From Anaerolineae bacterium (lineage in GTDB: Bacteria; Chloroflexota; Anaerolineae; Anaerolineales; E44-bin32), in assembly GCA_011174825.1 (NCBI GenBank), contig DUEZ01000064.1:17512-81511 (forward strand): a DNA stretch of 64,000 bases, read 5' to 3'. Of this stretch, positions 9,513 to 51,140 are shown one piece after another. Under the pieces are notes generated by a model that had not been told where the DNA came from, did no database searches, and saw only the letters and a program-made list of their open reading frames with translations. Numbering within the stretch: the first letter of the stretch is position 1; the number at the start of each line of letters is the position of its first letter. The translations under genes were made by a program, and so were the position numbers.

Positions 9513-9521
9513 GGAAACACT

Positions 9522-10924: not shown

Positions 10925-10961
10925 TATTGTAATTATAGCGGAGAGAACGAGCCGCGCACCT

Positions 10962-11471: not shown

Positions 11472-11474
11472 GGC

Positions 11475-11720
11475 TCACCTCAAGGCGAGCGCAGTCAGAT
11501 GGGCTACCCCAGCCACGGCCGAAGCTAGAAGAAAAGCGTAACCCACTAGTCGGATACAACCCGCGGTTAGAACGGCGCGTCCATGTTGACGGTGCCAACG
11601 AACCCCCGCCAGTCGCTCCTCTACATCTTCGGAAGGGTGGCCTTGTCGTGCGTACCACCATGCGCGGTGGCAGAAGGTGAATTGAGGAATCTCGGAGGCG
11701 CGGAGAGTCTTCTCGGCCAC
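11475..11720 (-). CDS. Cas4/DUF83-family nuclease, N-terminal piece (first cluster cysteine plus TM helix)
   Basis: 81 aa. ASEIPQFTFCHRAWWY resembles the Cas4 N-terminal Cys motif. It is followed by hydrophobic LVGYAFLLASAVAGVAHLTALAL. It ends at TGA 11475-11477, in the same frame as the next ORF. Confidence 0.6.
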   Translation of the reverse strand: MAEKTLRASEIPQFTFCHRAWWYARQGHPSEDVEERLAGVRWHRQHGRAVLTAGCIRLVGYAFLLASAVAGVAHLTALALR

Positions 11721-11723
11721 GCC

Positions 11724-12368
11724 TTATGTGCGATCCAGCTTTTTCTCGACCGACTCGAGCGCTTCCTTCAACGCGTGTTGCTGAAGGCTTGTCGTTAAGT
11801 CACCACGTGTACGCTCGACGACACCTCGCACCATATCGGTGATCCGTCGCAAATTCCCGGTGAGGGCATCGGGGAAGTCAATCGTCACCAGCAGTCCGTA
11901 AATGTCCTCCATCGCAGAAAGCAACCTCTCCGCTTCTACGACGTCATCATGTCGCAAGATGTCCAGGACACGCCGGCGCATTTCCCCAACCGCCTCACCC
12001 AAGCCACCAAGATAGGCAGTATACTCCACGCCTAATGTGTTCGGATCGGGTAACGGTTCGCCCCCTAAGAGAGCGTAGACGATGTTCGCCTCGGCATACT
12101 CCTTAAGCGCGCTCATGGTGTACCCGGCGTGGTAGAGATCGGGATACGGAGCCAGCTCATCCCGCAGGATGATCCGCAACTCTCCGGCTTTCTTTAGATG
12201 TTCCTCAGCTAAAGGCCGTTCACCTCGATGAACAGCTCGGATGGCTACCGAGCAATGGCGGATCATGGTACGGGAGTGCTGAAGGGCTCTATCGCGCGCT
12301 GCGTTCTTCTCTTCGAGATGCAGACGGATTTGCTCGCCAATCTTGTCTAGTTTATCCATGAGTCTCAC
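11724..12368 (-). CDS. Translin-family protein (bacterial translin/TRAX-like)
   Basis: 214 aa and all-helical. YLGGLGEAVGEMRRRVLDILR and the LRRITDMVRGVVERTRGDL region match my memory of the translin family pattern (YL.GL.D..GEL.R). Confidence 0.6.
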   Translation of the reverse strand: MRLMDKLDKIGEQIRLHLEEKNAARDRALQHSRTMIRHCSVAIRAVHRGERPLAEEHLKKAGELRIILRDELAPYPDLYHAGYTMSALKEYAEANIVYALLGGEPLPDPNTLGVEYTAYLGGLGEAVGEMRRRVLDILRHDDVVEAERLLSAMEDIYGLLVTIDFPDALTGNLRRITDMVRGVVERTRGDLTTSLQQHALKEALESVEKKLDRT

Positions 12369-12697
12369 TTGTCAGATTCTGGATCGGGAGGGGCCGGTCG
12401 GAATAGTTGGTCGGCCAACGAGGTCCCCTCCGGGAGATGGATCTCACCATGTTGAGCCTCAAAACGAGTCATGTGCTCACTCAGCGCTCGCAACAACAAT
12501 TTGGCGTTATATGCCGTCATGATGACCCGGTTTCTCACATGCGCTTTTGGCACCTGAGGCAACACCTGAGCGAAATCGATCACGATTTCAGAGCGTGAGT
12601 GAGTGATCATGGCGAAATTGGCGTACGTAGGCTCAAGGTCGGCAGGTATGTGTACGCTCATACGACCTGCCGCTGGCTGCTCAGGTTTAGAAGACAT
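12365..12697 (-). CDS. DUF3467-like small protein
   Basis: 110 aa. YANFAMITHSRSEIVIDFAQVLP...NRVIMTAYNAKLLLRALSEHMTRFEAQHGEI matches the DUF3467 pattern as I recall it. Its stop overlaps the translin-like start by 4 nt. Confidence 0.55.
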   Translation of the reverse strand: MSSKPEQPAAGRMSVHIPADLEPTYANFAMITHSRSEIVIDFAQVLPQVPKAHVRNRVIMTAYNAKLLLRALSEHMTRFEAQHGEIHLPEGTSLADQLFRPAPPDPESDK

Positions 12698-12768
12698 GGA
12701 CCTGCTCCACTGGATTGAAAAGGAGGCCTCAACCGTACAAATACCGGTTGAGGCCTATCAAAGGCGAC

Positions 12769-13188
12769 CTAGAAGGGAATCTCGTCCTCAGACTGGGGCC
12801 CTGGTGTCATAACAGCGTCCTCGCTGTCAACGCCAAAGGCTTCCCCGCGACCGCCGAGGAAGCGGACCGTCTGGGCGTTAACTTCGAAGGAAGCCGCCGC
12901 GCTGCCATCCTGCCGCGTCCAGATGCGTGGATTGCCGTTCTCGTCCGCCACCATCCGACCCTCCACCAACACCTGGCGACCTTTGCTCAGGTATTGGTGA
13001 CAAGCTTCGGCCTGCCTGCCCCAAACCGATACACGAAACCAAACTGTTTCGTCTCTTTGTTCACCAGAGCTATCGGTGTACCGCCGGTTGGTCGCGACCG
13101 ATAGATTGGTGACCGCTTGCCCGCTGGGTGTGTAACGCATCTCGGGATCGCGGCCAAGGTTGCCAACAAGAATAACTTTGTGAAACAT
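12769..13188 (-). CDS. ssb: Single-stranded DNA-binding protein
   Basis: MFHKVILVGNLGRDPEMRYTPSGQAVTNLSVATN is an OB fold, and the acidic tail ends DEIPF. I use the internal ATG 13188, preceded by aaggagcacccc, rather than the track start 13248. Confidence 0.9.
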   Translation of the reverse strand: MFHKVILVGNLGRDPEMRYTPSGQAVTNLSVATNRRYTDSSGEQRDETVWFRVSVWGRQAEACHQYLSKGRQVLVEGRMVADENGNPRIWTRQDGSAAASFEVNAQTVRFLGGRGEAFGVDSEDAVMTPGPQSEDEIPF

Positions 13189-13399
13189 GGGGTGCTCCTT
13201 TCCGGTGGGGGTCGATCTCCAGTTCGGCCCGGGCGGCCGTGACAGCATTTAATGCGCCCACCGTACCTAGAACAATTGTACTATAAACCGCTTTTTGGGT
13301 CAATACTTTCGGGGTTCGATTTGCTTCGACGGACAAGCGTGTTCTGACCGCCGGGAGGGCAGCTTCCCACAAGGTTTGAGCTCGGGTGAAGCTGTCCGT

Positions 13400-14206
13400 C
13401 TACCCCTTAACCTCCTCAAGGACTTGAGCGATTAATTGCTGCATGCGCTGGTAATGTGAGCCACGCCAGTAAATGCGAGCACAATCTTCACAACGACGGT
13501 ATTCATCATAGTATTGGCGCGTTTCGGGCTGGAGTTGATCGATGATCTCCTCTTTGTCCACCGGTGTTAGCATGCCATTACAACGGATGCAGCGTTGAAA
13601 CGGGATAATCAAACCAACCAAATCGAACCGCCGCAGGACCTCGGTCAATTGAGCTCGAGGGTGGATCTCGCGCACGAAGTAACCATGCGTCACCTTGCTC
13701 CGCTTGAGCAACCCGCGATCCTTGGTGAGCAAAATCCGGCTTTGATGGCTTGAGATCCGAGCCAGCTCATCATCGGCAAAATCGTTTCGATAAAGGGTGT
13801 CGAAACCCAGCATGCGCAGGTATCCTGCTAAGCGGCCTAGATGAGTATCTACCACAAAGCATACTTCCCGCAGCGGCTTCGGGCGAAGGTGTAGCAAAGG
13901 GGAGATATCCATCGACTCAAACACAGGGTACACGCTGATTTGGTCGCCATCCCGCAAACGATAACCGAAATCTACCGACACACCATTGGCGAGGATAAGA
14001 TCAACCTCGGTGTGAGGTACGCCGAGTGCCTCGATGGTATCTTTAATCGCCGGGCGACCGCTGAAGGCGTAGGTAAACAGAACCTGTCTTCGATCCAGCG
14101 GCAGGAAATCGTTCAATTCCGAGTAGAAGCGGAAGATTGCTTCCGACATAGAAGGCTCTAAAGACATACCTAGCCATAAGATAAACTGCAAATCAGTCCG
14201 GGACAA
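13400..14206 (-). CDS. Mut7-C RNase-domain protein with N-terminal ubiquitin-like domain
   Basis: A beta-grasp-like N-terminus (FRFYSELNDFL...DGDQISVYP) is followed by FVVDTHLGRLAGYLRMLGFD...LLTKDRGLLKR (PIN-like Mut7-C). The C-terminal zinc ribbon is CIRCNG...CEDCARIYWRGSHY. The true start may be an internal ATG (MSEAIF, about 14149). Confidence 0.65.
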   Translation of the reverse strand: MSRTDLQFILWLGMSLEPSMSEAIFRFYSELNDFLPLDRRQVLFTYAFSGRPAIKDTIEALGVPHTEVDLILANGVSVDFGYRLRDGDQISVYPVFESMDISPLLHLRPKPLREVCFVVDTHLGRLAGYLRMLGFDTLYRNDFADDELARISSHQSRILLTKDRGLLKRSKVTHGYFVREIHPRAQLTEVLRRFDLVGLIIPFQRCIRCNGMLTPVDKEEIIDQLQPETRQYYDEYRRCEDCARIYWRGSHYQRMQQLIAQVLEEVKG

Positions 14207-37776: not shown

Positions 37777-39243
37777 ATGCCCAAATTTGAACCCGTCATC
37801 GGCCTAGAAGTACACGCCGAACTAGCGACCTTGTCGAAGATGTTCTGCGGGTGCCCGGTCGTGGATTCCACCAGCGCCGAACCCAACAGTTCGGTATGTG
37901 AGATCTGCACCGGCATGCCCGGAACTTTACCCGTAATCAACCAGCGGGCAATTGAGTACGCGCTGCGCGTGGCACTGGCCTTGAATTGCAATATCGCTGA
38001 AACCAGCGTTTTCGCCCGCAAGAACTACTTCTACCCCGACCTCCCCAAAGGATTTCAAATCTCACAGTATGAATTGCCGCTGGCACAAAACGGTTGGCTG
38101 GATTTTGAAACCGAAAATGGGGAGCGGAGAATTCGGATACGACGCGTCCACCTTGAGGAAGACACCGGAAAGCTGCTGCATCGCGAAGGGTATTCACTCG
38201 TGGATTTCAACCGCTCCGGTGTTCCTTTGCTCGAGATCGTCAGCGAGCCCGATATGCGGTCGACCGAAGACGTCAAGGTCTTCGCCACTTCTTTGCGTTC
38301 GATACTCCGTTATCTCGAGGCCAGCAGCGGAGATATGGAGAAGGGAGCGGTTCGCTTCGAGGCGAACATCTCCCTCCGTCCATTGGGAACGGAGGGCTTA
38401 GGCACCCGCACCGAGGTCAAGAATCTCAATTCATTCAGGGCCATGGTTAAGGCCCTCGATTACGAGATCGAGCGTCAGGATCAGATCCTTGCAGGGGGCG
38501 GGGAGGTGAAGCAGGAAACCGTCGGTTGGGATGAAGTTCGCGGTGTCACTGTATCCCAACGAGGCAAGGAGGAAGCTCACGACTATCGCTACTTTCCCGA
38601 GCCCGACCTACCGCCGTTGCATATCGACCCTGCGTGGATTGACCGGATACGGATTGAGCTTCCGGAGCTACCAAGCGAGAAAAAAGCACGCTTTGTGAGC
38701 GAATACCATCTGACCCCCTATACTGCGGACCTCCTAGTTGAAGAGCGAGCGGTCGCCGATTATTTCGAGGTCGCAGTCGCTCATGACCCTGACACTTCAC
38801 CGACCAAGATCGCCAACTGGCTTACCGGAGAGTACTTCAGCCTGCTCAACCTGGCTGGGGTCGAGATTGATCAGTCTAAAGTGTCCCCCCAATCCTTCGC
38901 GGAACTGGTGGCGATGGTCGAGCGAGAGGACATCAACGCCACCAGCGGAAAAGAGGTGCTGGAAGTGATCTTCGAAACCGGCGACTCACCGATTGAGATC
39001 GTCGAGTCGAGGGGGTTGGCGCAACTTAACGATCCACAAGCGATCATGGATCTTGTGAACCAAGTGTTAGCAGAGAACCCGAAGCAGGTTGAGCAATACC
39101 TTGCAGGCAAGACCACCATCTCTCAATGGCTGTTCGGTCAGGTGATGCGTGCTGCTGGTGGTAGAGCCAACCCTGCGCTGTTACGCACCAATCTCGAGCA
39201 GGCCCTGAAAATTCTGGAGGAGAGTTGCAGGTCTGGAGGGTGA
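37777..39243 (+). CDS. gatB: Asp/Glu-tRNA amidotransferase subunit B
   Basis: 488 aa. IGLEVHAEL, KMFCGC, RKNYFYPDLPKGFQISQ and the C-terminal YqeY-like tail are present. Confidence 0.92.
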   Translation: MPKFEPVIGLEVHAELATLSKMFCGCPVVDSTSAEPNSSVCEICTGMPGTLPVINQRAIEYALRVALALNCNIAETSVFARKNYFYPDLPKGFQISQYELPLAQNGWLDFETENGERRIRIRRVHLEEDTGKLLHREGYSLVDFNRSGVPLLEIVSEPDMRSTEDVKVFATSLRSILRYLEASSGDMEKGAVRFEANISLRPLGTEGLGTRTEVKNLNSFRAMVKALDYEIERQDQILAGGGEVKQETVGWDEVRGVTVSQRGKEEAHDYRYFPEPDLPPLHIDPAWIDRIRIELPELPSEKKARFVSEYHLTPYTADLLVEERAVADYFEVAVAHDPDTSPTKIANWLTGEYFSLLNLAGVEIDQSKVSPQSFAELVAMVEREDINATSGKEVLEVIFETGDSPIEIVESRGLAQLNDPQAIMDLVNQVLAENPKQVEQYLAGKTTISQWLFGQVMRAAGGRANPALLRTNLEQALKILEESCRSGG

Positions 39244-39676
39244 GACTCGTCACTTGACGCTCCATGATTACGGAAGTATGGTGCATTTGAAAAGACGGGT
39301 ATTATGCTGCCGCTTACCTGCACTGATCAACCTAGATTGCTTGATGGCTTCACGAATGCAGACGCCTACAAGAACTTCACTCAGGACTCTCTTTCCTGCT
39401 TGCAATCTTTGAATCATTTAGGACGGCTACGAGGTACTTCGGTAGCCTTGTAAGGAGGCAGTAAGATCTTCTTTGGGTTTAACACGCCCCCAATGGTCTG
39501 ATGATCTAAGGGGTCTACTTTTGAGGCCCATCTATGTCTTGGTTAGGTTTGAGATTGAGCGGTACTCAGGTTGGATGTATAAAATGTATTTTCTCTGTTA
39601 TGTTGCTGGTGTTCTCCTTTAGATCTGGCATACCCCCTGTCAGCGCCCAGATAACCCCACACCAAGGATCTCACCC

Positions 39677-40162
39677 ATGCGGATATCGATAAGTGAAATT
39701 AACCAACTGATTTCCCAGGAAATGGCCGGAGATGGCTCATTGATTGCTGTGCTGGAGGAAATTCAACAGCGCTACCGCTACCTACCGCGTGAGGCGCTGA
39801 TCCTGGCAAGTGAACGGTTGGATGTACCACTATCACAAGCTTACGCCGTCGCCACCTTCTACAACGCTTTCAGTTTGAAACCGAAAGGAAAGCACTGTTT
39901 GCAAGTGTGCATGGGGACAGCCTGTCACGTGCGCGGTAGTCCGCAAGTTCTGAACCGAATTGAAACCACACTCGGGATTGCGGCAGGCGAAACGACTCCT
40001 AATATGTTGTTCACTTTGGAGACAGTCAATTGCTTGGGAGCATGTGCACTGGGACCCATCGTCGTGACGGATAGTGAATATTCTGGACAGATGACCGTGC
40101 AAAAGTCAGACATGCTCTTGAAGCGAATTATGAGGGCAGAGGAAGTTAAAAAGGATGGATAG
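39677..40162 (+). CDS. NuoE/HydC-like thioredoxin-fold [2Fe-2S] protein
   Basis: 161 aa. CLQVCMGTACHVRG...CLGACALGP gives four Cys in the NuoE/24-kDa pattern. Confidence 0.8.
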   Translation: MRISISEINQLISQEMAGDGSLIAVLEEIQQRYRYLPREALILASERLDVPLSQAYAVATFYNAFSLKPKGKHCLQVCMGTACHVRGSPQVLNRIETTLGIAAGETTPNMLFTLETVNCLGACALGPIVVTDSEYSGQMTVQKSDMLLKRIMRAEEVKKDG

Positions 40163-42011
40163 GATCAACTCGGCTGCCGACTTTGACAAGTTACGCACAA
40201 GGTTGAAAAGTGATTACGCCCCTGATCATCCTTGGATCACCGTGTGTGGTGGCACGGGTTGTCGTGTATATGGGAGCGAAAAAGTATGGAACGCGTTTCA
40301 AGACGAGATCGCAAACAAGAACTTGAAAGCCACGCTCACGTACGATCTGAAGATGACCGGCTGTCATGGCTTTTGTGAAAAAGGACCCTTGGTTGTCATC
40401 CGCCCCATGGGGATTATGTATACCCATGTACAAGTTGGAGATGTGCCCGAGATCGTTGCTGAGCTGGCGAATGGCAGAACCGTTGAGCGTCTACTGTATA
40501 GCGACCCCAACACCGATGAAATGATCGAGCATGAGCACGACGTGCCATTTTACAAACATCAGCAACGTCTGATTCTCAATCTCAATGGGATTCTCGATCC
40601 TTTTCGGATTGATGAATACATCGCTCTGGGTGGCTACACTTCGCTTGAAAACATTCTTTGCTCTATGCCACCTGAACAGGTCATCGCTGAGATCAAAGCC
40701 TCCGGTCTGCGTGGACGAGGTGGTGCTGGCTACCCCACCGGCTTAAAGTGGGAAATGTGTCGTAAACAGCCGGGTGAGATCAAGTATGTGATCTGCAATG
40801 CGGACGAGGGTGACCCCGGCGCCTACATGGATCGTTCGATTATGGAAGGTAACCCCCACCGCGTCCTGGAAGGCATGACCATCGGGGCGTATGCCATCGG
40901 CGCATCTCAGGGCTACGTCTACATACGCAACGAGTATCCCCTTGCGGTTAAACACCTGCGTCAGGCGATCATGCAAGCGCAGGAGTATGGCTTCCTTGGA
41001 ACGGACATCCTCGGATCTGGGTTTGACTTCAACGTGAACATAAAGCTCGGCAGTGGCGCGTTCGTTTGCGGTGAAGAGACCGCACTGATGGCCTCCATCG
41101 AAGGGCGCGTTGGCGAACCGCGCCCTCGTCCCCCTTACCCAACTACGGCGGGTTTATGGGGACAACCAACCAATATCAACAATGTCAAGAGTTGGGCTTC
41201 GGTACCCATCATCATCGAGAGAGGGGCGGATTGGTACGCCAATGTTGGAACTGAAACCAGCAAGGGCACAATGATCTTTTCGGTCGTTGGCAACATCAAC
41301 AACACCGGGCTGGTTGAAGTACCGATGGGTATCTCTCTGCGCGAATTGATATTTGAAATTGGCGGCGGTATTCCGAACGGCAACACGTTCAAAGCAGCTC
41401 AGATCGGTGGACCATCTGGTGGGTGCATCCCTGCCCAACATTTAGATACACCCATTGACTATGAGTCTCTTACCGCCCTGGGAGCCATCATGGGCTCCGG
41501 TGGGTTGGTCATTGCCGATGAGGACACCTGTATGGTGGACTTTGCCCGCTATTTCATGAAATTCACCCAGGATGAATCCTGCGGAAAGTGCGTACCGTGC
41601 CGTATCGGCACAAAGGCCATGCTCGAAACATTGGAAAGGATCTGCGCTGGCGAAGGTCAACTGAGCGATATCGATTATCTCTTAGAGTTGGGTGAAGAGG
41701 TAAAACGCTCCTCTTTATGCGGTCTGGGACAGACCGCTCCTAATCCGGTGCTTTCGACCATCCAGTATTTCCGCGATGAATATGAAGCCCACATCGTCGA
41801 TATGACCTGCCCGGCTAAGGTTTGCAAGGCGCTGATCACCTACTCGGTCATCGAAGAGAACTGCACGGGCTGCATGGTTTGCCTGCGTAATTGCCCGAGC
41901 GACGCCATTACCGGTGCCAAGCAGGAAGTGCATGTAATCGACGCCGGGTTGTGTACACGCTGTGGGATGTGTATAAGCGTATGTAAATTCGATGCGATTC
42001 TCGTTACCTAG
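40155..42011 (+). CDS. NuoF/HydB-like NADH-binding FMN/FeS subunit with N-terminal 2Fe-2S domain and C-terminal 2x[4Fe-4S] ferredoxin domain
   Basis: 618 aa. GLRGRGGAGYPTGLKW, NADEGDPGAYMDR, ESCGKCVPCR and C-terminal CTGCMVCLRNCP...CTRCGMCISVC are present. Confidence 0.85.
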   Translation: MDRINSAADFDKLRTRLKSDYAPDHPWITVCGGTGCRVYGSEKVWNAFQDEIANKNLKATLTYDLKMTGCHGFCEKGPLVVIRPMGIMYTHVQVGDVPEIVAELANGRTVERLLYSDPNTDEMIEHEHDVPFYKHQQRLILNLNGILDPFRIDEYIALGGYTSLENILCSMPPEQVIAEIKASGLRGRGGAGYPTGLKWEMCRKQPGEIKYVICNADEGDPGAYMDRSIMEGNPHRVLEGMTIGAYAIGASQGYVYIRNEYPLAVKHLRQAIMQAQEYGFLGTDILGSGFDFNVNIKLGSGAFVCGEETALMASIEGRVGEPRPRPPYPTTAGLWGQPTNINNVKSWASVPIIIERGADWYANVGTETSKGTMIFSVVGNINNTGLVEVPMGISLRELIFEIGGGIPNGNTFKAAQIGGPSGGCIPAQHLDTPIDYESLTALGAIMGSGGLVIADEDTCMVDFARYFMKFTQDESCGKCVPCRIGTKAMLETLERICAGEGQLSDIDYLLELGEEVKRSSLCGLGQTAPNPVLSTIQYFRDEYEAHIVDMTCPAKVCKALITYSVIEENCTGCMVCLRNCPSDAITGAKQEVHVIDAGLCTRCGMCISVCKFDAILVT

Positions 42012-42045
42012 AAATAGGACACCGAACGCCGTGGGCGAGGTGGAA

Positions 42046-42735
42046 ATGATCCGATTGACAATTGATGAAAGGCCCATCGAAGTTCCTGAGGGGCGGACGA
42101 TATTAGAAGCTTGCCGTGAGCACGGCATCCACGTGCCAACCTTTTGCTACCATCCGGCTCTCGAGCCCTATGGCGCCTGCCGATTGTGCATGGTCGAATT
42201 ATCCCAACCGACGCGCCCGCCACGTCTGGTAGCGGCCTGCACCTATCCTTGCGAGCAGGGAGCTATTGTGTCAACAGACTCCGAGTCCGTACGACGCAGT
42301 CGGCGCATGTCCGTTGAACTGCTCTTGGCGGGGGCATTCAACGATCCGGAATTGCTCGCTCTGGCAGAGGAATTGGGGTTGGAAGAAGTACGCTTTAGGT
42401 TACCCGAGGAAGACGCTTGTGTGCTATGCGGCCTCTGCGTGCGCGCCTGCGACGAGATCGTCGGAGTCAGCGCGATCAGCTTGACCAATCGAGGGATCTC
42501 AAAAGAGGTCAGTCCACCTTTTCGGATCGTGTCGCCTACATGCATCGGTTGTGGTACGTGTGTTCTGATATGCCCGACCGGCGCACTTAAGCTGAACGAC
42601 GTTACAGGCTTTCGCAGTGTCCATCTTGTAGACTCTGAATACGATCGTGTGTATTGCCAAGTATGCGATGACTTGGATTTAAAACCTAGTTTGATCCAAG
42701 ATCTCGAGGTGCTGTCATCAAAACATACCGCCTAA
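42046..42735 (+). CDS. NuoG/HydA N-terminal-like FeS protein ([2Fe-2S] plus [4Fe-4S] clusters, no catalytic domain)
   Basis: About 229 aa from ATG 42046. TFCYHPALEPYGACRLCMVE (2Fe-2S ferredoxin-like) is followed by CVLCGLCVRACDE and CIGCGTCVLICP. Confidence 0.75.
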   Translation: MIRLTIDERPIEVPEGRTILEACREHGIHVPTFCYHPALEPYGACRLCMVELSQPTRPPRLVAACTYPCEQGAIVSTDSESVRRSRRMSVELLLAGAFNDPELLALAEELGLEEVRFRLPEEDACVLCGLCVRACDEIVGVSAISLTNRGISKEVSPPFRIVSPTCIGCGTCVLICPTGALKLNDVTGFRSVHLVDSEYDRVYCQVCDDLDLKPSLIQDLEVLSSKHTA

Positions 42736-42824
42736 ACTATCGATCAACAGGAAACCTGATCAAGCGTCTATTAGGAGCATTTGCAAGGGAAGCAATTTGA
42801 CCCACATGTAGACAAGGTTAATCG

Positions 42825-44945
42825 ATGGCTGAAGAATTAATTTCGCACATTGACACTCGAGAAAATAAGCCTGCGGCGCGTATTGGGATCGTTGTGTGTG
42901 AATGTGGCGACAAAATTGCCGGTGTATTAGCTACCGATCTCCTACGTGAGAGAAGCGCCTCGCTGCCCGGTGTCGTCTATACCATGAGCGAACCGTACCC
43001 ATGCAATGTCGATGGTCGATCTCGTCTCAGTCAAGCGATTATCGACCACAAACTGGAACGTGTACTGATCGCTGGATGCGCTCCACGTCTGGTGGAACAT
43101 CTATTCCAACAAATAATGGAGGAGACTGGCCTGGCAGGGTGTTACTTGAGCGTAGTTGACATCCGCGAGCAGTGCGCTTATGTCCACGCAAGCGACCCCG
43201 CTGCTGCAATGGAGAAAGCCACGAATTTGATCAAAATGGGTGTGGCGCGTTTGACGGAGATTGACCCGCCTCAAACTTTCTCCAGTGATGTTGTCAAGTC
43301 GGCCATGGTGATTGGCAGCGATTTGAGCGGTTTGACGGTGGCCCTTGCATTGGCAGATGGCGATATCGACGTATCGCTGGTCGAAAGGGACAGCCAATTG
43401 GGCGGAACGATGTACATGCTGCAAGATGGCGCCAAGGAATTGATCACCGAGAGCGTCGATGTGGTCTCGAAACACCCTCAAATCCAAACCATGTTGAACA
43501 CCCGCGTAACGGACGTGACCGGGCAGTCTGGGAACTACCAAGTACTTCTCGCACGGGATGATCAGAACTTTGAACTAAATGTTGGTGCAATCATCCTGGC
43601 TACTGGTGTGCGACCCAAAAGTCTGGATCCCAATTACTGGTATGACCGCTCGCTTGTGGTATCACAAATTCAGTTTGCACACGAGCTTGAAAAAACAACC
43701 GCTGCCAATGGCCAATTAGCATTGCACGATGTGGTGATGATCTTCCACACAGAAGATACCGAGGGTGGAGGTAGTTCTCACCTGAGTTGTGTGGCCGGGA
43801 TACGCCAAGCAATACAGGCCAAACAGCTCAACCCTGACATCAATGTCACGATACTCTTTCGCGATCTATATTTGGGTGAGGCTGGTGGGTCAGGCGAAAA
43901 TCTGCTCTTACAAGCAAAAGATTTGGGTGTTAATTTTTTCCGTTACCGAAAAAAACACCCTCCTTTCATTGGCGGTAAATACATCAAGGTGGACGATCCA
44001 CTGACCGACCAGCCTTTACAAATACCTTGTGACCGCGTGGTTCTAACCACACCATTGATACCACAGGACAATACCAGCGCGTTAGCGGCGATGCTACACC
44101 TGCCTCAGGATAAAAAGGGGTTCATCATCGATAGGCGTACACGTCTTCGACCAGGTAATTATGTCGACGATGGTATTTTTGTAGTTGGCGGAGTACATTA
44201 TCCAACCGACACAGCGGAAGCATTGCTCCAGGCCCATGTAACCGCTGCGCGCACACATCGCTTTCTAGGGAAGGACACGCTCACCACCGCAGGACTACGG
44301 GCCGAAATCGACCCCGCTTTATGCACAGGGTGTGGAAACTGTCCTCAAGTTTGTCCAACCTCCGCCATCACGCTTGAGAAGCGCGATGGTTTGTTGTCCC
44401 TGGCCACCGTGGATTTGTTGCGCTGTATTGGCTGTGGCAATTGCCTCGTGGTTTGCCCGGTCAAGGCCATTTCACTTCCAGGGTATGGCGATCCAGCAAT
44501 CCTGGCACAAATCAGCGCCGCCTTGAGTTCAACGGGAATGGAAAAAGAGGTCGAGGGAATTGACAAGCCTGTTCCAAAGATTGTGGTGTTTGCATGTGAG
44601 TGGGGCGCATATGCTGCGGCCGATATAGCCGGCGCCAGGCGAATGTCCTACCCCGCTGATGTGCGCATCATCCGCATGAATTGTTCGGCCCGATTTGACC
44701 CCAATCACGCATTATGGGCCTTCCTCAATGGGGCAGACGGTGTGCTTGTGGGTGTTTGTCAAAAGGGAGAATGTCACTACGGTAACGGGAATCTGTACGC
44801 AGAAGAGCGCGTGGCAACACTGAGAAAACAACTCGCAGAACGTGGTTTCGATCCACGTCGCCTACGTTTAGAATCCTTTGCGACCGACGATGGATTTGCG
44901 TTCGCAAATACGATGAAAACTTTCAGCAATGAGATGAGAAAGTAG
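42825..44945 (+). CDS. HdrA-like FAD/FeS oxidoreductase fused to a C-terminal MvhD/FlpD domain (QmoB-like architecture)
   Basis: 706 aa. The HdrA-type segment is VLIAGCAPRLVEH...DIREQCAYVH. The Rossmann-like segment is AMVIGSDLSGLTVALALA...LVERDSQLGG. The ferredoxin pair is CTGCGNCPQVCP / CIGCGNCLVVCP. The C-terminus VVFACEWGAYAAAD...IRMNCSARFD...GVLVGVCQKGECHY is MvhD-like. Confidence 0.75.
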   Translation: MAEELISHIDTRENKPAARIGIVVCECGDKIAGVLATDLLRERSASLPGVVYTMSEPYPCNVDGRSRLSQAIIDHKLERVLIAGCAPRLVEHLFQQIMEETGLAGCYLSVVDIREQCAYVHASDPAAAMEKATNLIKMGVARLTEIDPPQTFSSDVVKSAMVIGSDLSGLTVALALADGDIDVSLVERDSQLGGTMYMLQDGAKELITESVDVVSKHPQIQTMLNTRVTDVTGQSGNYQVLLARDDQNFELNVGAIILATGVRPKSLDPNYWYDRSLVVSQIQFAHELEKTTAANGQLALHDVVMIFHTEDTEGGGSSHLSCVAGIRQAIQAKQLNPDINVTILFRDLYLGEAGGSGENLLLQAKDLGVNFFRYRKKHPPFIGGKYIKVDDPLTDQPLQIPCDRVVLTTPLIPQDNTSALAAMLHLPQDKKGFIIDRRTRLRPGNYVDDGIFVVGGVHYPTDTAEALLQAHVTAARTHRFLGKDTLTTAGLRAEIDPALCTGCGNCPQVCPTSAITLEKRDGLLSLATVDLLRCIGCGNCLVVCPVKAISLPGYGDPAILAQISAALSSTGMEKEVEGIDKPVPKIVVFACEWGAYAAADIAGARRMSYPADVRIIRMNCSARFDPNHALWAFLNGADGVLVGVCQKGECHYGNGNLYAEERVATLRKQLAERGFDPRRLRLESFATDDGFAFANTMKTFSNEMRK

Positions 44946-45027
44946 GTGGAGAGACCATTTACCAAAACCACCTCATGTCAAGATTTTCTGGTATAACCAC
45001 GACAAAAACTGGAGGAAAGAGGTCAGG

Positions 45028-46194
45028 ATGTCGAAACGATTAGAATTGGAGGTTTGGTCGCAAGACAACTGCGCCGGATGCGGCTTATGTGTGGCGGCTT
45101 GCTCAAAGCAAGTCTTGTACTGGAATGGCGGCAATCACCCCGTCGTAGAAAAGCGCAGCAAGACCATTGGCTACACCCAAATACCCCTCGATAGCTGTAC
45201 TTTTTGCCAGGTGTTCTGTGAGGAAGTTTGCCCACGATTCGAGCATTGGGCTCCCATCGAGCCCTTAACCATTTTAGCAGCGCGAGCCCATGGTCCGGTT
45301 AAATCGGGAGCACCCAATGACGTGATCCGAAGCATCCTCGCCGCCGGGCGCAACGCAGGTTTAATAGACGGTGTGGTGATGCTTGATCTTGATCCATGGG
45401 ATCTCAAACCCGTCGCGCGCGTTGTCTCAACGGTTGAGGAGATCGTGGAAAGCGTGGGGCCTCAATACCTATGGGCGCCCATCTTCGATGTCCTCAATAC
45501 TGCAATCTACGATCGGGCCATGGAAAATATCGCCGTGGTGGGCACGCCTTGTACAGCGCAGGCCGTCCGTAGGATCAAGGCGTCTCCGAAAACCCTTTTA
45601 CGGAAATATCAAGAGGCCATCCGGTTGAGCATCGCCGTTTTCTGCACGGGTGTCTACCGACCAGAGTTGATCGATGAGATCTTGGTCAAGCGGATGGGAA
45701 TCCCGCGCGATCAAGTCAAGCGGTTGGAGGTTTCCGCTGATCACGAGCAGATGCGTGTTTTGTTATGGAACGGTGAGGAGCACACCCTTCCCCGCCAACT
45801 TGCCGAAAGCTATACCCTTACAGGATGCGGTAGTTGCGATGATTACCTGGGTGAGTCGGCGGACTTGGCCGTTGGTACCCTAGGTGCGCCGGAGGGTTCC
45901 TCCACAGTCATCATTCGCACCCATGTTGGTGAAGTTTTCGCCCGCAACGCCGTCCAGATGAATCTCTTGGCAACAAGTCTTGATGTGGATACAGCCATTC
46001 TGGAAACCGCTGCTGGCGAAAAAGATCGGCGCGAGCGAGCTCAGGCTTTCAAGGATCTACAAATCTTGATGCTTGATGCCCTGGCCGATCCCGCCCAACG
46101 CGGTGAGGCCATTCAGCAATTCGTGCGGTTGTATCGGACACCAACCAGATCTACCTCACCCGAGAGATCCCGTAATAGCTGTACGGGATGCTGA
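45028..46194 (+). CDS. FrhB/FdhB/FpoF-family flavin-FeS protein (coenzyme F420 hydrogenase beta-like)
   Basis: 388 aa. N-terminal CAGCGLCVAAC and CTFCQVFCEEVCP are followed by VVGTPCTAQAVRRIK and a C-terminal GCGSCDDY region typical of the FrhB family. Confidence 0.7.
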   Translation: MSKRLELEVWSQDNCAGCGLCVAACSKQVLYWNGGNHPVVEKRSKTIGYTQIPLDSCTFCQVFCEEVCPRFEHWAPIEPLTILAARAHGPVKSGAPNDVIRSILAAGRNAGLIDGVVMLDLDPWDLKPVARVVSTVEEIVESVGPQYLWAPIFDVLNTAIYDRAMENIAVVGTPCTAQAVRRIKASPKTLLRKYQEAIRLSIAVFCTGVYRPELIDEILVKRMGIPRDQVKRLEVSADHEQMRVLLWNGEEHTLPRQLAESYTLTGCGSCDDYLGESADLAVGTLGAPEGSSTVIIRTHVGEVFARNAVQMNLLATSLDVDTAILETAAGEKDRRERAQAFKDLQILMLDALADPAQRGEAIQQFVRLYRTPTRSTSPERSRNSCTGC

Positions 46195-46246
46195 ACACCG
46201 ACAGACGGATCAATGTTGAGAAAATGGTTCGCTGAGAGGGACAACC

Positions 46247-46897
46247 ATGACCGTGATAAATGCAAAAGCCAAGGACCTTAAAACGATAAGCCGCAAATTA
46301 AAAGAGAGCTTGAATGAAGAACCTATTGAGGTGACGAACGCAAGCCACCTCCATGGATTGGTTGCTGGGTTAAAGCACGGTGAAGTCATCATCCAGGGTA
46401 ATGCTGGGGATTACTTCGGTGTTTTGAACGCTGGCGCTACGATAAGGGTTACTGGAGACGTTGGCAACTATACAGCAGACAACATGACTTCCGGCACGAT
46501 TATCGTGGAGGGTAACGCTGGCTATGGTGCTGGTCAGTATTGTTATGATGGCGCGGTAATTATCTACGGTGATGCGGGCGATTTCACGGCGACCATGAAC
46601 AAGGGTGCCGTGATCATTGTCGTAGGCAACGTAGGAGATGAAACTGGTACCTATATGTTAGACGGTGACCTGGTTGTTGTTGGCGATGCAGGTGAGAATT
46701 TCGCAAATTTTGTAATCCGTGGCAATGTTTATATTGGGGGCAAATGGAAAAGTCTCGGTCACAACACTCGCGTTGAAGAACTGACCCAAGGCGATATCGA
46801 AAAACTCTCTGTCTATTTCCAAACTTATGACATCAAATCTGATCCTGTTGAGTTCAAAAAGATCGTGGCTGCGTCGGAAAAGCCATTCTACAAATAG
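46247..46897 (+). CDS. Glutamate synthase alpha-subunit C-terminal (GXGXG beta-helix) domain protein
   Basis: 216 aa of repeated G-x-a-G-x-x-x-G turns (IIQGNAGDYFGVLNAGATIRVTGDVGNYTADNMTSGTIIVEGNAGYGAG...). Confidence 0.8.
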   Translation: MTVINAKAKDLKTISRKLKESLNEEPIEVTNASHLHGLVAGLKHGEVIIQGNAGDYFGVLNAGATIRVTGDVGNYTADNMTSGTIIVEGNAGYGAGQYCYDGAVIIYGDAGDFTATMNKGAVIIVVGNVGDETGTYMLDGDLVVVGDAGENFANFVIRGNVYIGGKWKSLGHNTRVEELTQGDIEKLSVYFQTYDIKSDPVEFKKIVAASEKPFYK

Positions 46898-46906
46898 GAG
46901 GATAGA

Positions 46907-48478
46907 ATGACCGTTGTTGGCGCATTTTGTGTAAGTGTGAATAGAGAGGTTTGTATCAACTCACGTATGCCGGGAAAATGTGCGACGTGCGCTGAGGTCT
47001 GCCCACATGGTGTTTTTGCCCTCGATGCTTATACAGGTGAGATGAGAATCAGAAATTATAACGCCTGTGTAGGTTGCCGAATCTGCGCCGAATTTTGCCC
47101 GGAGGATGCAATTCGCATCAATCCGGCTGAGTCAGAATACATCGCACGCTTTCCATGGACATTGTCGACAGTTGAAGAGATCCACCACAAAGCTCAAACT
47201 GGTGACTACCTGTTGCGCGGGTTCGGCACCCAGCAGCCGACACCCCATTTCGACACGATCACTGTAGTTCCAAGCCAGATCGCCAGTCCTGAACCCCGGG
47301 ACAAATACCGTGAAGAGTGTGATTTGGAAGTGGTGATCGGTGAGGACACGTGTGAAAAACCCCTCCACCTCAAACTGCCGTTTGTATGGCCGGCCATGTC
47401 ATTTGGCGCGTTGAGCAAAGAAGCCAAGATGGCCTTGGCTATCGGTGCGGCTCAAACTGGTATTGCAACCAATACCGGTGAAGGTGGCCTTTTAGATGAA
47501 GAGATGTGGCTATCTCGTGGCTATGTCGATCAGAATTTCACCAAGAAAGAATGGGAGCCTGGTGGGTATTTGATCATCCAATGGTCCACTGGAAGATGGG
47601 GAGTATCTGCAGATTATGTCAACAATGGTGACGCGGTCGAAGTTAAGATCGGCCAAGGTGCAAAACCCGGCATGGGGGGACATCTGCTTGGCACAAAAGT
47701 GACAGAAGAAATAGCGCGGGTCCGTGGAATTCCAGTCGGTTCAGATGCGCTTAGCCCTTGCCGATATTACGATGTCCAAAACCTAGAAGATATGAAACAC
47801 ATGGTCGATTTCCTGCGCGATGTCACCAATTATCAATTCCCCATCCTTTTCAAGCTAGGACCTTCACGCCCCTATGATGATGTCGCTGCTTGCATCGAGC
47901 TTGGCGCCGATGCGATCAGCATCGATGGATTGGTCGGTGGCACGGGCTGCTCACCCGATATCGTTACACAAGGTGTGGGCATTCCTACCATCGCTTGTCT
48001 CCCCCCAGCTGTTCAAGCACTGAAGGATCACGGCGTCCATCGAAAAGTAAAACTGATTGCATTGGGGGGCATCCGCAACGGTCTGGATGCATTCAAGGCA
48101 ATGGCAATGGGAGCCGACGCGGTTGGTTTCGGCAGCGCAGCGGAGATTGCTATGGGCTGCCGTGTCTGCTACGCTTGCCAGAAGGGTAACTGTCCATATG
48201 GCATAACGAGTCAGAAACCCGAAATGCGCGCACGTCTTGACCCGATTGAGGTCGGGCAGCGGTTAGCAAATTTCATTCATGCCTGCGCTGAAGAGGTCAA
48301 AATTCTAACGATGCTTTCAGGCCACAATAGCATTTCCGACCTTTCGACCGAGGATCTGCGCGCGATGGACATGAACACGGCGGCTTTGACCGGACTAAAA
48401 TTAGCCGGTTATGATCGTCCATTGTCATTCTGGGAGGAGGGATACAAGCCTGTAGCCATGAAGGCCAACGGCAACTAG
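46907..48478 (+). CDS. Archaeal-type glutamate synthase FMN-binding domain protein with N-terminal 2x[4Fe-4S] ferredoxin domain
   Basis: 523 aa. CATCAEVCP / CVGCRICAEFCP is followed by EVKIGQGAKPGMGGHLLGTKV, SIDGLVGGTGCSP, LGGIRNG and the C-terminal GCRVCYACQKGNCPYG (3Fe/4Fe cluster region). Confidence 0.85.
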   Translation: MTVVGAFCVSVNREVCINSRMPGKCATCAEVCPHGVFALDAYTGEMRIRNYNACVGCRICAEFCPEDAIRINPAESEYIARFPWTLSTVEEIHHKAQTGDYLLRGFGTQQPTPHFDTITVVPSQIASPEPRDKYREECDLEVVIGEDTCEKPLHLKLPFVWPAMSFGALSKEAKMALAIGAAQTGIATNTGEGGLLDEEMWLSRGYVDQNFTKKEWEPGGYLIIQWSTGRWGVSADYVNNGDAVEVKIGQGAKPGMGGHLLGTKVTEEIARVRGIPVGSDALSPCRYYDVQNLEDMKHMVDFLRDVTNYQFPILFKLGPSRPYDDVAACIELGADAISIDGLVGGTGCSPDIVTQGVGIPTIACLPPAVQALKDHGVHRKVKLIALGGIRNGLDAFKAMAMGADAVGFGSAAEIAMGCRVCYACQKGNCPYGITSQKPEMRARLDPIEVGQRLANFIHACAEEVKILTMLSGHNSISDLSTEDLRAMDMNTAALTGLKLAGYDRPLSFWEEGYKPVAMKANGN

Positions 48479-48588
48479 TATTCCAGAGGAAAGATCATCT
48501 CGTGAATACATCCTGAAAGCTAGAATCACTCTGTTCAGTATAGCGTTTGTACTGCGCATTGTTTCTTAGACCTTGAAACGTCAAAGGT

Positions 48589-48616
48589 GGGTTGCTCGAT
48601 GCAACCCGTTGGTTTT
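48589..48616 (+). terminator. Candidate terminator after the redox/glutamate-synthase operon
   Basis: gggttgc-tcgat-gcaaccc, followed by gttggtttt. Confidence 0.5.
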
Positions 48617-48802
48617 AACTGACATACGTTTCTGCGTATTTCTCATGGCTTCTTAATACGCTCAAAGCCACGCATTTTGTTGAGTCCTTTTACTGTCGCC
48701 ATGGTAAGATTTCCCTCAAGAAACCTGCTTTATACAAACTCAATTCTCCCATCCGATTAGAGTGTCCAGCGAATGGCTATTGTTATCAAGGAGTAGATCG
48801 CT

Positions 48803-50077
48803 ATGAAACCATTATCTGATGGAACCATTCCTCCCGAAGGAAGTGTGTACTGGATTGCCCTGAAGCAATTTGATGAAGCTGCGGACATTCTTAATCTGGA
48901 TGATGGTATGCGTGATCTATTGCGCCATCCCAAGCGCGAATTAACCGTGACCTTCCCTGTATGCATGGACGATGACTCACTGCGTATGTTCACCGGGTAT
49001 CGTGTTCATCATAATACTGTCCGTGGGCCAACAAAGGGAGGTATCCGCTACCACCCAATTGTGAATTTAGACGAGATACGCGCCCTGGCGATGTGGATGA
49101 CGTGGAAGTGCGCTGTTGTCAATATCCCCTATGGTGGTGCAAAAGGAGGTGTAATTGTCGATCCCGATGAGTTAAGCATTCATGAACTTCAAAGACTCAC
49201 CCGTCGTTTTGCTACGGAAATCTCCATTCTCATGGGCCCAGAAGGCGATATCCCCGCTCCCGATGTCAACACGAATCAACAGACCATGGCTTGGATCATG
49301 GACACGTATTCGATGCACAAGGGGTACTCCGTGCCAGCGGTTGTGACTGGTAAACCGATCGAGATCGGCGGAAGCATGGGCCGTCTATCGGCTACGGGTC
49401 GAGGTGTGATGATTACAACGCGCGAAGCACTCAAGATGCGAGGCAAGACCTATTCAGATGTAACCGTTGCGGTGCAAGGCTTTGGTAATGTTGGCTCGGT
49501 GGCTGCAGAGATAATGTCCGCCGAGGGTGCTACCATTGTTGCCGTATCCGACGCGTCTTGCGGTATTGCCAACCCCAAGGGATTGGATATCAAGGCCTTA
49601 AAATCCCATGTTGCTCAGAACAAGCTCCTAAAAGGTTTCCCTGGTGGCGACGTTATCACCAATGAAGAACTGCTGACGTACAAGTGTGATGTCCTTGCAC
49701 CGTGTGCACTGGAAAATCAGATCACATCAAAAATCGCTGATCGTGTGCAAGCATCTTTTGTGGCTGAAGGAGCCAATGGCCCTACAACCCCAGAGGCAGA
49801 TATCATCCTTGAGGATAAAGGTGTTTTCATCGTCCCTGATATCTTATGCAATGCCGGGGGTGTTACATCGTCTTACTTTGAATGGGTCCAGGATTTGCAA
49901 TCATTTTTCTGGACAGAGAATGAGATTGATGAGCGTCTTGAAAGAATTCTAGTGGAGGCTTTCCGCGATGTGATGGCCGAAGCAAAGAAACGCAAAGTTG
50001 GGAGACGTATGGCAGCACAATGTTTGGGTATAAAACGCGTCGCCGATGCAACAAGGGCACGTGGTATTTACCCATAG
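48803..50077 (+). CDS. gdhA: Glutamate dehydrogenase (Glu/Leu/Phe/Val dehydrogenase family)
   Basis: 424 aa. [18 protein letters not shown] (catalytic Lys region) and the GFGNVG dinucleotide fold are present. RBS is caaggag. Confidence 0.9.
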
Positions 50078-50156
50078 AAGGTGATTGTTTTATTCCTCCA
50101 CATAATTCTTTAATGATAGATGTTTAAAATAGTCGTAGTCGTAGTGCCTGGGGATT

Positions 50157-50446
50157 TGTGGAAAGGGGTGTTAACCACGGGGTATTTGCCTAGGGCTGGG
50201 GGTGATTTAGGTTCTTAACCTATATATGGGAGTGATTATAAAGCAGGGCTTCCACAGCGACCATGTGGATGGTTGGTGGACAGGGTTGACCGTCTGTCGA
50301 TGACATGGTGGTAGGTTGAAATTATGGGGAGAGCATGTCTCTATACCCCATATATGGCGGTTTAGGTTGGGAATCAGAAACCGGAAATGGACAAGTTTTC
50401 CCCAGAAAATGCAAGTTTTCCACAGCTGTGAAGGGGGTTATCCACA
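50157..50446. promoter_or_regulatory. Cluster of DnaA-box-like 9-mers in a non-coding spacer
   Basis: TTATCCACA is perfect at 50438-50446. TTTTCCACA at 50416-50424 has 1 mismatch. Reverse-orientation TGTGGATGG (50264-50272) and TGTGGAAAG (50157-50165) have 2 mismatches each. An AT-rich stretch lies at about 50090-50135. Confidence 0.4.
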
Positions 50447-50480
50447 GGTTGAGTTGCTTGTAGTGTTATCAGTACCTCAA

Positions 50481-51140
50481 CTACTGCTGATCCATACCCA
50501 GTTCATCCATGATCCGTTCCGCCGCCAGCCGAGCGGAGACAAGCGCCGTAGGCACACCCGTGCCGGGGTGTGTGCTCGCCCCGGCGAAGTACAGGTTGCG
50601 GTAGCGCGCATGCCGGTTGTGAGGACGCATATAAGCCAGCTGGGTGAGCGTATGACTCAAGCCGTGTGTGGCTCCTTTGAAAAGGTTGTATCGCTTCCGC
50701 CAACTGCAGGGTGTATAACACACCTCGAGCTTGATATGCTCACGAACCGTGCCGATCCCGATCGAGGCCAGACGCTTGAAGATCGCCTCACGCGCCTGAT
50801 CGCGCACCGACTGCCAATCCTCGTCGGGGTAGGCATCCAGATTCCCGACCGGTACGATCCCGATCAAGTTGTCACATCCCGCAGGCGCCAGTGAGGCGTC
50901 AAGTCGCGCGGGCGCATGGACATACAGACTGGGTCGCTCAGGCAGTTCGCCGTCCTGCAAGGCTTGAAATCCGCCCCGATAATCTTCCGCAAGGAAGAGC
51001 ATATGCGGCTTCAGCCCTGAGATCTCACGGTCCAGGCCCCAGAAGAAGGAGATCGTCGAGCATGAATAGCGCTTGCGGAGGATTGGGTTGGCGTGTGCAT
51101 GGTCCTTATTGCCCTTGTACGTCTTGTTCGCATTCAGGGT
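50481..51140 (-). pseudogene. 5'-truncated phytoene desaturase (CrtI-family) gene remnant
   Basis: The open frame encodes only the C-terminal part of a CrtI-like enzyme, which I recall as roughly 500 aa (SCSTISFFWGLD...LYVHAP...FAGASTHPGTGVP). An in-frame TAG at 51141-51143 ends it upstream, with more stops beyond. There is no room for the N-terminal FAD domain before the next gene at 51442. Confidence 0.65.

Follow-up and report, generated by a model that had tools for sequence, protein, structure and literature searches.

What becomes of a glutamate synthase when its glutaminase is missing? The textbook enzyme is defined by a glutaminase and an ammonia tunnel. A 64,000-nucleotide stretch of DNA from an Anaerolineae bacterium (the window, from here on) poses the question: three consecutive genes encode an FrhB-like protein, the GXGXG domain of glutamate synthase (GltS) and its flavin mononucleotide (FMN) domain as separate polypeptides, and no class II amidotransferase, the glutaminase of GltS, is encoded anywhere in the window. 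An original prediction, made from the letters alone, had described just this. Its three open reading frames lie where it placed them, Pfam bears out each domain and the missing amidotransferase is confirmed. It had left three ways out: a glutaminase encoded elsewhere, an enzyme that uses ammonia directly or an enzyme with another substrate. Part of that interpretation survives. What it missed was a set of four genes upstream, always co-linear with the trio, for Bfu-type NuoEF/HoxU proteins and an HdrA–MvhD fusion. Their presence changes which electron donor is likely. We read the trio as the catalytic end of a seven-subunit iron–sulfur flavoprotein complex that would carry out ammonia-using 2-oxoglutarate/glutamate redox chemistry, wired to a Bfu-type NADH/ferredoxin module; going by the sequences, we give this reading an even chance. 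It starts from observations, namely domain identities, the missing glutaminase, strict synteny, the structure of a clade and conserved active-site residues. A coherent GltS clade that has shed its glutaminase and become attached to electron modules of the bifurcation type would amount to an enzyme class of its own, built around the same FMN site.

The missing glutaminase

The genome (assembly G000, 3.85 Mb in 102 contigs, 91.9% complete with 6.1% contamination, the window lying on contig C64) has no match to Pfam GATase_2 (PF00310) in the whole assembly. That profile under-detects the glutaminase subunits of split enzymes, scoring 41 bits on the one at locus L021, while another matches only GATase_6/7, so we built a profile of our own, A4, from 23 split-type glutaminase subunits. 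In three Methanobacterium genomes A4 recovers 313-residue GltS glutaminases over their full length at 352–356 bits. In G000, A4 and phmmer searches with two split-type glutaminase subunits return only GlmS, a 639-residue open reading frame with two SIS domains. Genome-wide, then, no stand-alone GATase_2 gene was found. A GATase_2 match is likewise missing from 22 of 24 sampled genomes of the same family, including the one-contig G004, a member of the same genus that carries the operon at 95% identity and in which no GltS-type glutaminase was found; searches of G002 and G008 found none either. The cultured Longilinea arvoryzae KOME-1 and two operon-bearing metagenome-assembled genomes (MAGs), each reached through a single, very long contig, gave only partial matches, to open reading frames the size of PurF, GlmS or AsnB. 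One of eight operon-bearing genomes tested (G024) does have a GltS glutaminase, within a separate, classical GltB of ~1500 residues. Within 10 kb on either side of the operon, no GltS-type glutaminase was found in any of 46 loci collected through the FrhB-like protein, nor in L013, L022, L023 or the Longilinea locus, L078.

In L013, the 356-residue gene that comes next after the FMN gene was considered as a hidden glutaminase and rejected. It is a PPDK_N-related fragment, and its sole match in its own genome is 48% identical over part of its length and lies on another contig (C47). As an aside, Longilinea has a PurF-sized open reading frame that A4 matches, whereas in G000 and G004 the profile hits GlmS alone; these two genomes may lack purF.

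Could this still be an ordinary glutamine-dependent GltS of the archaeal type, its glutaminase encoded elsewhere or in the 8% of the genome that is unassembled? The assembly is incomplete, glutamine synthesis is evident from two glnA genes, and in Methanobacterium a glutaminase gene does lie on a different contig from a glutaminase-less pair. That Methanobacterium gene, however, is part of its own complete glutaminase–GXGXG–FrhB–FMN cluster, and dispersal is not the habit of the family, 75 of 80 relatives keeping the glutaminase gene adjacent. With none found in G000, its closed relatives, Longilinea or the two long-contig MAGs, we regard a glutaminase encoded elsewhere as very improbable indeed.

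The relatives of the FMN subunit bear on the same point. In a search of 1.8 billion cluster representatives, the nearest one outside its own cluster is 56% identical (P0121, locus L074) and sits in the order GXGXG–GXGXG–HdrA/MvhD–HdrC–HdrB–FrhB–FMN, again without a glutaminase; at 45–48% come the GXGXG plus polyferredoxin–FMN pairs of the Methanobacterium type. Where 80 loci of diverse relatives were compared, the class II gene adjoins the FMN gene in all except the glutaminase-less Anaerolineae clade, three Methanobacterium loci and one contig of 2.3 kb. The glutaminase-bearing loci run glutaminase–FMN–(NAD(P)H oxidoreductase)–GXGXG or glutaminase–GXGXG–FMN, often beside glnA. We built two FMN-domain trees rooted on classical GltB, a quick one of 94 rows and a careful one (LG+C20 PMSF) of 49 rows. 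In both, the loci without a glutaminase all fall into a single clade (SH-aLRT 98 for the quick tree, 99/96 for the careful one) made up of the Anaerolineae, the HdrABC-linked relative and the Methanobacterium paralog, and the branch between it and the glutaminase-bearing relatives is long (0.4–0.5 changes per column). Chloroflexota and L074 group with support of 100/100, and the glutaminase-less pairs at L079, L081, L082 and L076 (Methanobacterium and an archaeal contig) are the sister group of this Hdr-linked clade. A single supported clade argues that we are not looking at an ordinary archaeal-type GltS. In Methanobacterium the glutaminase-less pair, whose polyferredoxin–FMN protein has 620 residues, exists besides a complete cluster (L166 and L167 were examined), which argues that the glutaminase-less form has a role that the complete enzyme does not.

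Is the FMN site itself intact? The genome encodes one GltS FMN domain, that of the FMN subunit. In this subunit a Fer4 dicluster (residues 24–69) precedes a Glu_synthase domain (residues 141–473) that aligns with residues 869–1197 of ferredoxin-dependent GltS (Fd-GltS, 1LLW) at E 4e-45. The original prediction had called the N-terminal double-ferredoxin domain an addition; it is present, and it is standard in the FMN subunits of split ('archaeal-type') GltS. The equivalents of E903 (the E of TGEGG), K972 (K253) and R992 (R273) are kept, together with the cluster cysteines, which here form a four-Cys motif, C-x2-C-x2-C-x4-C-P, common to other split-type FMN subunits. In our alignment A1 these residues are invariant or nearly so in members with and without a glutaminase alike. 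We take K972 and R992 to be the residues that bind 2-oxoglutarate in Synechocystis Fd-GltS, the residue roles, including that of E903, coming from the structural literature on GltS. The partner GXGXG subunit matches NCBIfam FwdC at 86 bits and GltB at 33 bits.

Direct use of ammonia and use of another substrate both stand, with the conserved 2-oxoglutarate-site residues favouring ammonia. On the second view, the FMN/GXGXG pair would act on some other 2-oxo acid, an imine or an unrelated acceptor and serve as the terminal electron sink or source of the Bfu/HdrA module. The lost glutaminase, the long branch and Methanobacterium's keeping of a complete GltS beside its paralog would all suit this view. 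So would an insert of ~19 residues (RGYVDQNFTKKEWEPGGY, FMN-subunit residues ~196–214) after the TGEGG loop, which in A1 is common only to the HdrABC-linked P0121 and is missing from other split GltS FMN subunits. Several source annotations are generic or inconsistent too ('glutamate synthase-related', 'alpha-hydroxy-acid oxidizing'). Against it stand the active-site equivalents, conserved whether or not a glutaminase is present, and glutamate dehydrogenase (GDH), whose gene recurs in relatives beside the operon or close to it, in three distinct arrangements. We judge a different substrate quite unlikely. A further label on some orthologs, 'methylamine-glutamate N-methyltransferase subunit C', can be set aside on its own account: N-methylglutamate synthase (MgsABC) needs the amidotransferase-like MgsA besides MgsB (GXGXG) and MgsC (FMN), no gene of the MgsA kind was found in the operon or the genome, and the labels are automatic.

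Seven genes in one order

The trio forms the distal end of a run of seven genes on one strand, positions 39,677 to 48,478 (Table 1), whose spacing ranges from overlaps of 8–20 nucleotides to a gap of 89 nucleotides. The order is identical in ~50 Chloroflexota loci wherever the contig is long enough, a sample made up of the 46 loci found via the FrhB-like protein, L013, L022, L023 and L078, and also G024 and G008. Where upstream sequence is available, the FrhB–GXGXG–FMN trio is never seen apart from the HdrA–MvhD gene. Close homologs are labelled Anaerolineales or Chloroflexota, and all 46 loci come from Chloroflexota MAGs except one labelled Methanosarcinales. That one (L033, JAIWHF010000020.1) carries the Anaerolineae-type seven-gene operon plus GDH, with an FrhB-like protein 74% identical to the window's, and was probably binned wrongly, its true source being a member of the Chloroflexota. 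Of the seven proteins, the FMN subunit is conserved best (71–87% identity) and the HdrA-like subunit least, mostly 42–56% identical outside the genus and 36% in the most distant locus.

Table 1. The seven-gene operon and its downstream neighbours, in window coordinates
Feature	Position	Strand	Evidence and remarks
NuoE/HoxE/BfuC-like thioredoxin-like [2Fe-2S] subunit, 161 aa	39677..40162	+	Pfam 2Fe-2S_thioredx 1.3e-44; overlaps next gene by 8 nt
NuoF/HydB/BfuB-type NADH–FMN subunit, 618 aa	40155..42011	+	Pfam Complex1_51K, NADH_4Fe-4S, 2Fe-2S_thioredx, Fer4
HoxU/NuoG-N-terminal (minimal BfuA-like) Fe–S subunit, 247 aa	41992..42735	+	Pfam Fer2_4 and Fer4 dicluster
HdrA-like flavo/Fe–S protein fused to MvhD, 706 aa	42825..44945	+	Pfam FlpD/MvhD 7.9e-41, Pyr_redox_2, Fer4
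FrhB-family FAD/[4Fe-4S] protein with N-terminal 2x[4Fe-4S], 388 aa	45028..46194	+	Pfam FrhB_FdhB_C 1.2e-30, FrhB_FdhB_N, Fer4_7
GXGXG beta-helix subunit (GltS C-terminal domain/FwdC type), 216 aa	46247..46897	+	Pfam GXGXG (PF01493) 2.8e-17
Ferredoxin domain plus GltS FMN/Fe–S domain, presumed catalytic subunit, 523 aa	46907..48478	+	Pfam Glu_synthase 6.4e-105
Terminator-like hairpin 3' of FMN gene, candidate operon end	48586..48610	+	Consensus scan
Glutamate dehydrogenase, 424 aa	48803..50077	+	Pfam ELFV_dehydrog 2.2e-81; GGAKGG catalytic-lysine motif present

What do the four upstream genes bring? The NuoF-like protein, which carries an extra N-terminal [2Fe-2S] domain and a C-terminal 2x[4Fe-4S] domain, aligns from end to end with BfuB subunits of bifurcating enzymes of known structure at 661–831 bits, HydB and NfnB among them. 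The top score is to subunit B of the NiFe-Bfu enzyme (7T2R), against ~380 bits for the NuoF of complex I. By sequence it is of the full-length BfuB type, and the BfuB and BfuC domain set is present. The NuoE-like protein matches NCBIfam HoxE/NuoE below the model cut-offs, and the HoxU-like subunit matches HoxU and the N terminus of FeFe_hydrog_A6. This small HoxU/NuoG-N-terminal-like protein is the only counterpart of BfuA, and the site for a third substrate would have to be reached through HdrA–MvhD, the FrhB-like protein and GltS. The HdrA-like protein scores 462 bits with NCBIfam HdrA2 and aligns with HdrA (5ODC/9SFI) over residues 19–244 and 317–572 only, that is, the N-terminal/FAD part and the C-terminal part. 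In one sub-clade (L058:3907-7116; also L051, L057, L063 and L065) the NuoF/BfuB-like subunit is ~1070 residues long, a GltD-like Fer4_20 plus Pyr_redox_2 domain (NAD(P)H) taking the place of the C-terminal 2x[4Fe-4S] domain.

Modules of this kind occur elsewhere in the genome. Further HdrA/MvhD paralogs lie on contigs C80, C57, C76 and C97, including an HdrA–MvhD–HdrB–HdrC set on C80; C97 also has a second BfuB/HoxU-like pair, and C69 a NuoEFG of the complex I type.

A possible reaction and its electrons

Ammonia as the nitrogen substrate, the path of the electrons, any coupling to energy, the direction of the reaction and any use of coenzyme F420 are all things we infer. With the GXGXG beta-helix subunit as its scaffold, the FMN subunit would interconvert 2-oxoglutarate, free NH3 and two electrons with L-glutamate via 2-iminoglutarate, as GltS does at its own FMN site, and glutamine would take no part. 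Electrons could pass from the FMN to the four-Cys cluster, on to the N-terminal 2x[4Fe-4S] domain and so to the FrhB-like FAD/Fe–S protein, and from there through MvhD–HdrA and the HoxU-like subunit to a Bfu-type NuoF/NuoE core that would react with NAD(H) and ferredoxin.

The standard potential of the 2-oxoglutarate plus NH4+/glutamate couple, calculated from the GDH equilibrium with textbook values, is about -130 to -140 mV. This is well above NADH, and it is close to the -140 mV quoted for the heterodisulfide couple (PMC9304861). Energy coupling of the overall reaction is therefore plausible, and the glutamate couple could be the high-potential partner when electrons from NADH or F420H2 are bifurcated to ferredoxin, or in the opposite process. 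Forwards, an NADH-dependent reductive amination would also drive ferredoxin reduction; backwards, glutamate oxidation would be pulled by reduced ferredoxin. That the operon encodes a new bifurcating or confurcating enzyme, in which reductive amination of 2-oxoglutarate with free ammonia, as the exergonic, high-potential half-reaction, lets NADH (and/or F420H2) reduce ferredoxin or the reaction runs in reverse to NADH, is a tentative idea, and one we are inclined to doubt. One variant can be struck out. A futile cycle of the complex and GDH that makes reduced ferredoxin sums to NADH reducing ferredoxin, which is endergonic, and is ruled out thermodynamically. Were the complex energy-coupled, it would add a couple from central metabolism to the few high-potential partners of bifurcation and would help to explain how the Anaerolineae, plentiful in anaerobic digesters and sediments, keep their redox balance. 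If the bifurcating version is true, amino-acid nitrogen metabolism in anaerobic Chloroflexota would be tied directly to energy conservation. The operon is present in the cultured Longilinea arvoryzae KOME-1, so the matter can be taken to the bench.

There is a good deal to set against a seven-subunit, Bfu-wired enzyme. GDH already achieves the same net reaction with NAD(P)H, and the need for so elaborate a machine is unexplained. The operon is patchy (orthologs in 5 of 41 close-relative genomes), so it is not a general route to glutamate. In the Bfu scheme the third substrate should have a potential lying between NADH and ferredoxin, which that of the glutamate couple does not. The ferredoxin domain inserted in HdrA is absent from our HdrA-like protein (~73 residues against ~163 in HdrA) and throughout its orthologs. 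Its GxGxxG motif (residues 162–169) reads GSDLSG here and in several relatives, while most orthologs keep it intact as GSGLSG or GGGLAG. The set that marks an HdrA-type bifurcating module (a thioredoxin-reductase-like FAD domain with an intact GxGxxG, inserted and C-terminal ferredoxin domains) is thus incomplete, the MvhD fusion being present. With the insert lost and the motif changed, HdrA may be a mere wire here. Co-transcription of the seven genes is suggested by their spacing and synteny. The predicted contact between the FrhB-like protein and the FMN subunit is weakly supported by co-folding: the median ipSAE was 0.46 (runs of 0.58, 0.46 and 0.45) against 0.00 for the best control, with contact agreement of at least 75% and partner pLDDT of at least 79. 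On a calibration set, 58 of 80 solved complexes reached the mark, as did 2 of 110 mismatched pairs, but scores of 0.60 or less took in 7 of the 80 solved complexes and both of the mismatched pairs that passed, so that a pass at this level is wrong more often than right unless the contact was likely beforehand.

Might the trio suffice by itself? It would then be a F420H2-dependent, ammonia-using GltS, the methanogen enzyme minus its glutaminase, and the upstream four would form a separate Bfu/HdrA enzyme (an NADH/ferredoxin:F420 oxidoreductase supplying F420H2, for example) or would share no more than regulation with it. The FrhB-like protein, the only full FrhB homolog in the genome, has F420-reactive proteins as its best solved relatives (the F420-reductase modules 8RJA_E and 8RIU_B, also FrhB and Fsr), and FrhB-linked GltS clusters have already been proposed to use F420 (PMC3448663, PMC3087415, PMC9012536). 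With a potential of about -350 mV, F420 would also suit the Bfu core as a mid-potential third substrate. The same structure search, however, matched 7-hydroxymethyl chlorophyll a reductase (5DQR), and outside the methanogens membership of the FrhB family does not imply use of F420. Nor does the sequence itself reveal F420 binding: we looked for published F420-binding residues of FrhB and Fsr against which to score the protein, but the paper on Fsr mentions no bound F420 and lists no such residues.

The genes for F420 itself are partly there. On contig C78 (L011:6027-10988, minus strand) an LLM-class F420 oxidoreductase, cofC, cofD, the C-terminal (nitroreductase-like) domain of fbiB, cofE and fno, for NADPH:F420 reductase, form one cluster, whereas FO synthase (cofG/cofH) was not found in G000 or its closed relatives. 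Tail genes without cofG/cofH suggest FO scavenging or some other route, as far as gene content can tell. Longilinea has cofD, as do 33 of 41 relatives; being near-universal in the order, it is uninformative as a correlate of the operon and was dropped as one. Also telling against a trio working alone is the company it keeps, seven genes with short gaps and one order in ~50 loci, and the FrhB–FMN pair that stands behind Hdr genes once more in the 56% relative. An enzyme of the trio only is, in our view, rather unlikely, and the seven-subunit complex is the reading we carry forward.

Known systems and neighbouring genes

How does such a complex compare with enzymes already described? The FrhB-linked clusters FGltS(I) and FGltS(II) of methanogens and anaerobic methanotrophic archaea (ANME) have been proposed as F420-dependent glutamate synthases, as the original prediction had noted for methanogens; the proposal is unproven and none has been purified (PMC3448663; MTH193 in PMC3087415; 'FrhB10' in PMC9012536). 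Like them, our operon places an FrhB-family subunit beside a split GltS of ferredoxin–FMN and GXGXG subunits, and the Methanobacteriales clusters (glutaminase–GXGXG–FrhB–FMN) are among the nearest outgroups of the glutaminase-less clade in the FMN tree. Unlike it, the methanogen clusters, ordered glutaminase–FMN–GXGXG–FrhB or glutaminase–GXGXG–FrhB–FMN, keep the class II gene in every case examined, often by glnA, and their reaction is written with L-glutamine (PMC3448663). They also lack NuoEF/HoxU and HdrA–MvhD, and their FrhB proteins are distant (49–55 bits). Set beside FGltS, then, the operon has the FrhB subunit with GltS subunits and lacks the glutaminase in the cluster.

With split GltS of the archaeal or Thermotoga type (L021 of G023, for instance) the operon shares an FMN subunit with N-terminal 2x[4Fe-4S], a separate GXGXG subunit and the four-Cys motif. 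It differs in having no glutaminase, in the FrhB, HdrA–MvhD and Bfu subunits that replace a Pyr_redox_2/Rubredoxin_C reductase, and in an identity of 37–40%. Bacterial NADPH-dependent GltS (GltBD; 1EA0, 6S6S) and Fd-GltS (1LLW) have the homologous FMN domain with its substrate-site residues and cluster cysteines, but our proteins are separate polypeptides with four cluster cysteines rather than three, and no amidotransferase, central domain or GltD partner. Of the features of a glutamine-dependent GltS (GOGAT), the FMN domain and GXGXG are present; the class II glutaminase and a gltB-linked GltD or ferredoxin donor are missing. The original prediction had noted the absence of GltD, and this holds for the operon, in which no GltD-like gene was found; GltD-like proteins do occur elsewhere in the genome, one of 501 residues on C89, one on C65 and two HdrA/GltD-type proteins of ~1530 residues on C83.

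On the side of the electron modules, the 2022 catalogue of Bfu enzymes lists hydrogenase, Fdh, Nfn, Wor, Bam, Por, Mbh and Codh types and never mentions glutamate (PMC9304861). Bam-Bfu, the class II benzoyl-CoA reductase BamBCDEFGHI, is the only one of these described with BfuABC (NuoG/F/E-like) and an HdrA-type module serving a separate catalytic subunit (PMC9304861), and by description this is what our operon resembles. Its catalytic subunit, though, is the tungstopterin protein BamB, working at ~-622 mV, where we have a GltS-type FMN subunit, a couple likely far more positive and an FrhB-like adaptor. The FdhAB–MvhD–HdrABC and MvhAGD–HdrABC complexes of methanogens (7BKB, 5ODC) offer homologs of both HdrA and MvhD, and the FdhB of the Fdh–Hdr complex belongs to the FrhB family (PMC3448663). 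HdrBC, present in L074, is absent from our operon; its HdrA has no inserted ferredoxin domain and, in this genome, a degenerate FAD motif. A hydrogenase or formate dehydrogenase is the partner in methanogens; here a GltS module would be donor or acceptor. A literature search turned up no account of a GltS that lacks a glutaminase and is linked to Hdr or Bfu modules, and a survey of HdrA proteins mentions only GltD inserts. The operon combines split GltS, Bfu and Hdr modules, each of a known kind, in a variant with no characterised member.

The surroundings add a little. An Rfam scan of positions 38,800 to 50,600 for a glutamine or other nitrogen riboswitch gave nothing credible. A promoter and terminator scan returned no more sites than expected from shuffled sequence, and the hairpin of Table 1 is a suggestion only. 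The GDH beyond it, the only one in the genome, is a neighbour of the operon, probably on a separate transcript. The two large proteins on C83 (L161:2466-7055 and 9517-14151, minus strand) are flavoproteins with several FAD/NAD Rossmann domains, a GltD-type Fer4_20 domain and ferredoxin domains, and between them lie a cyclic nucleotide (cNMP)-binding histidine kinase and a response regulator.

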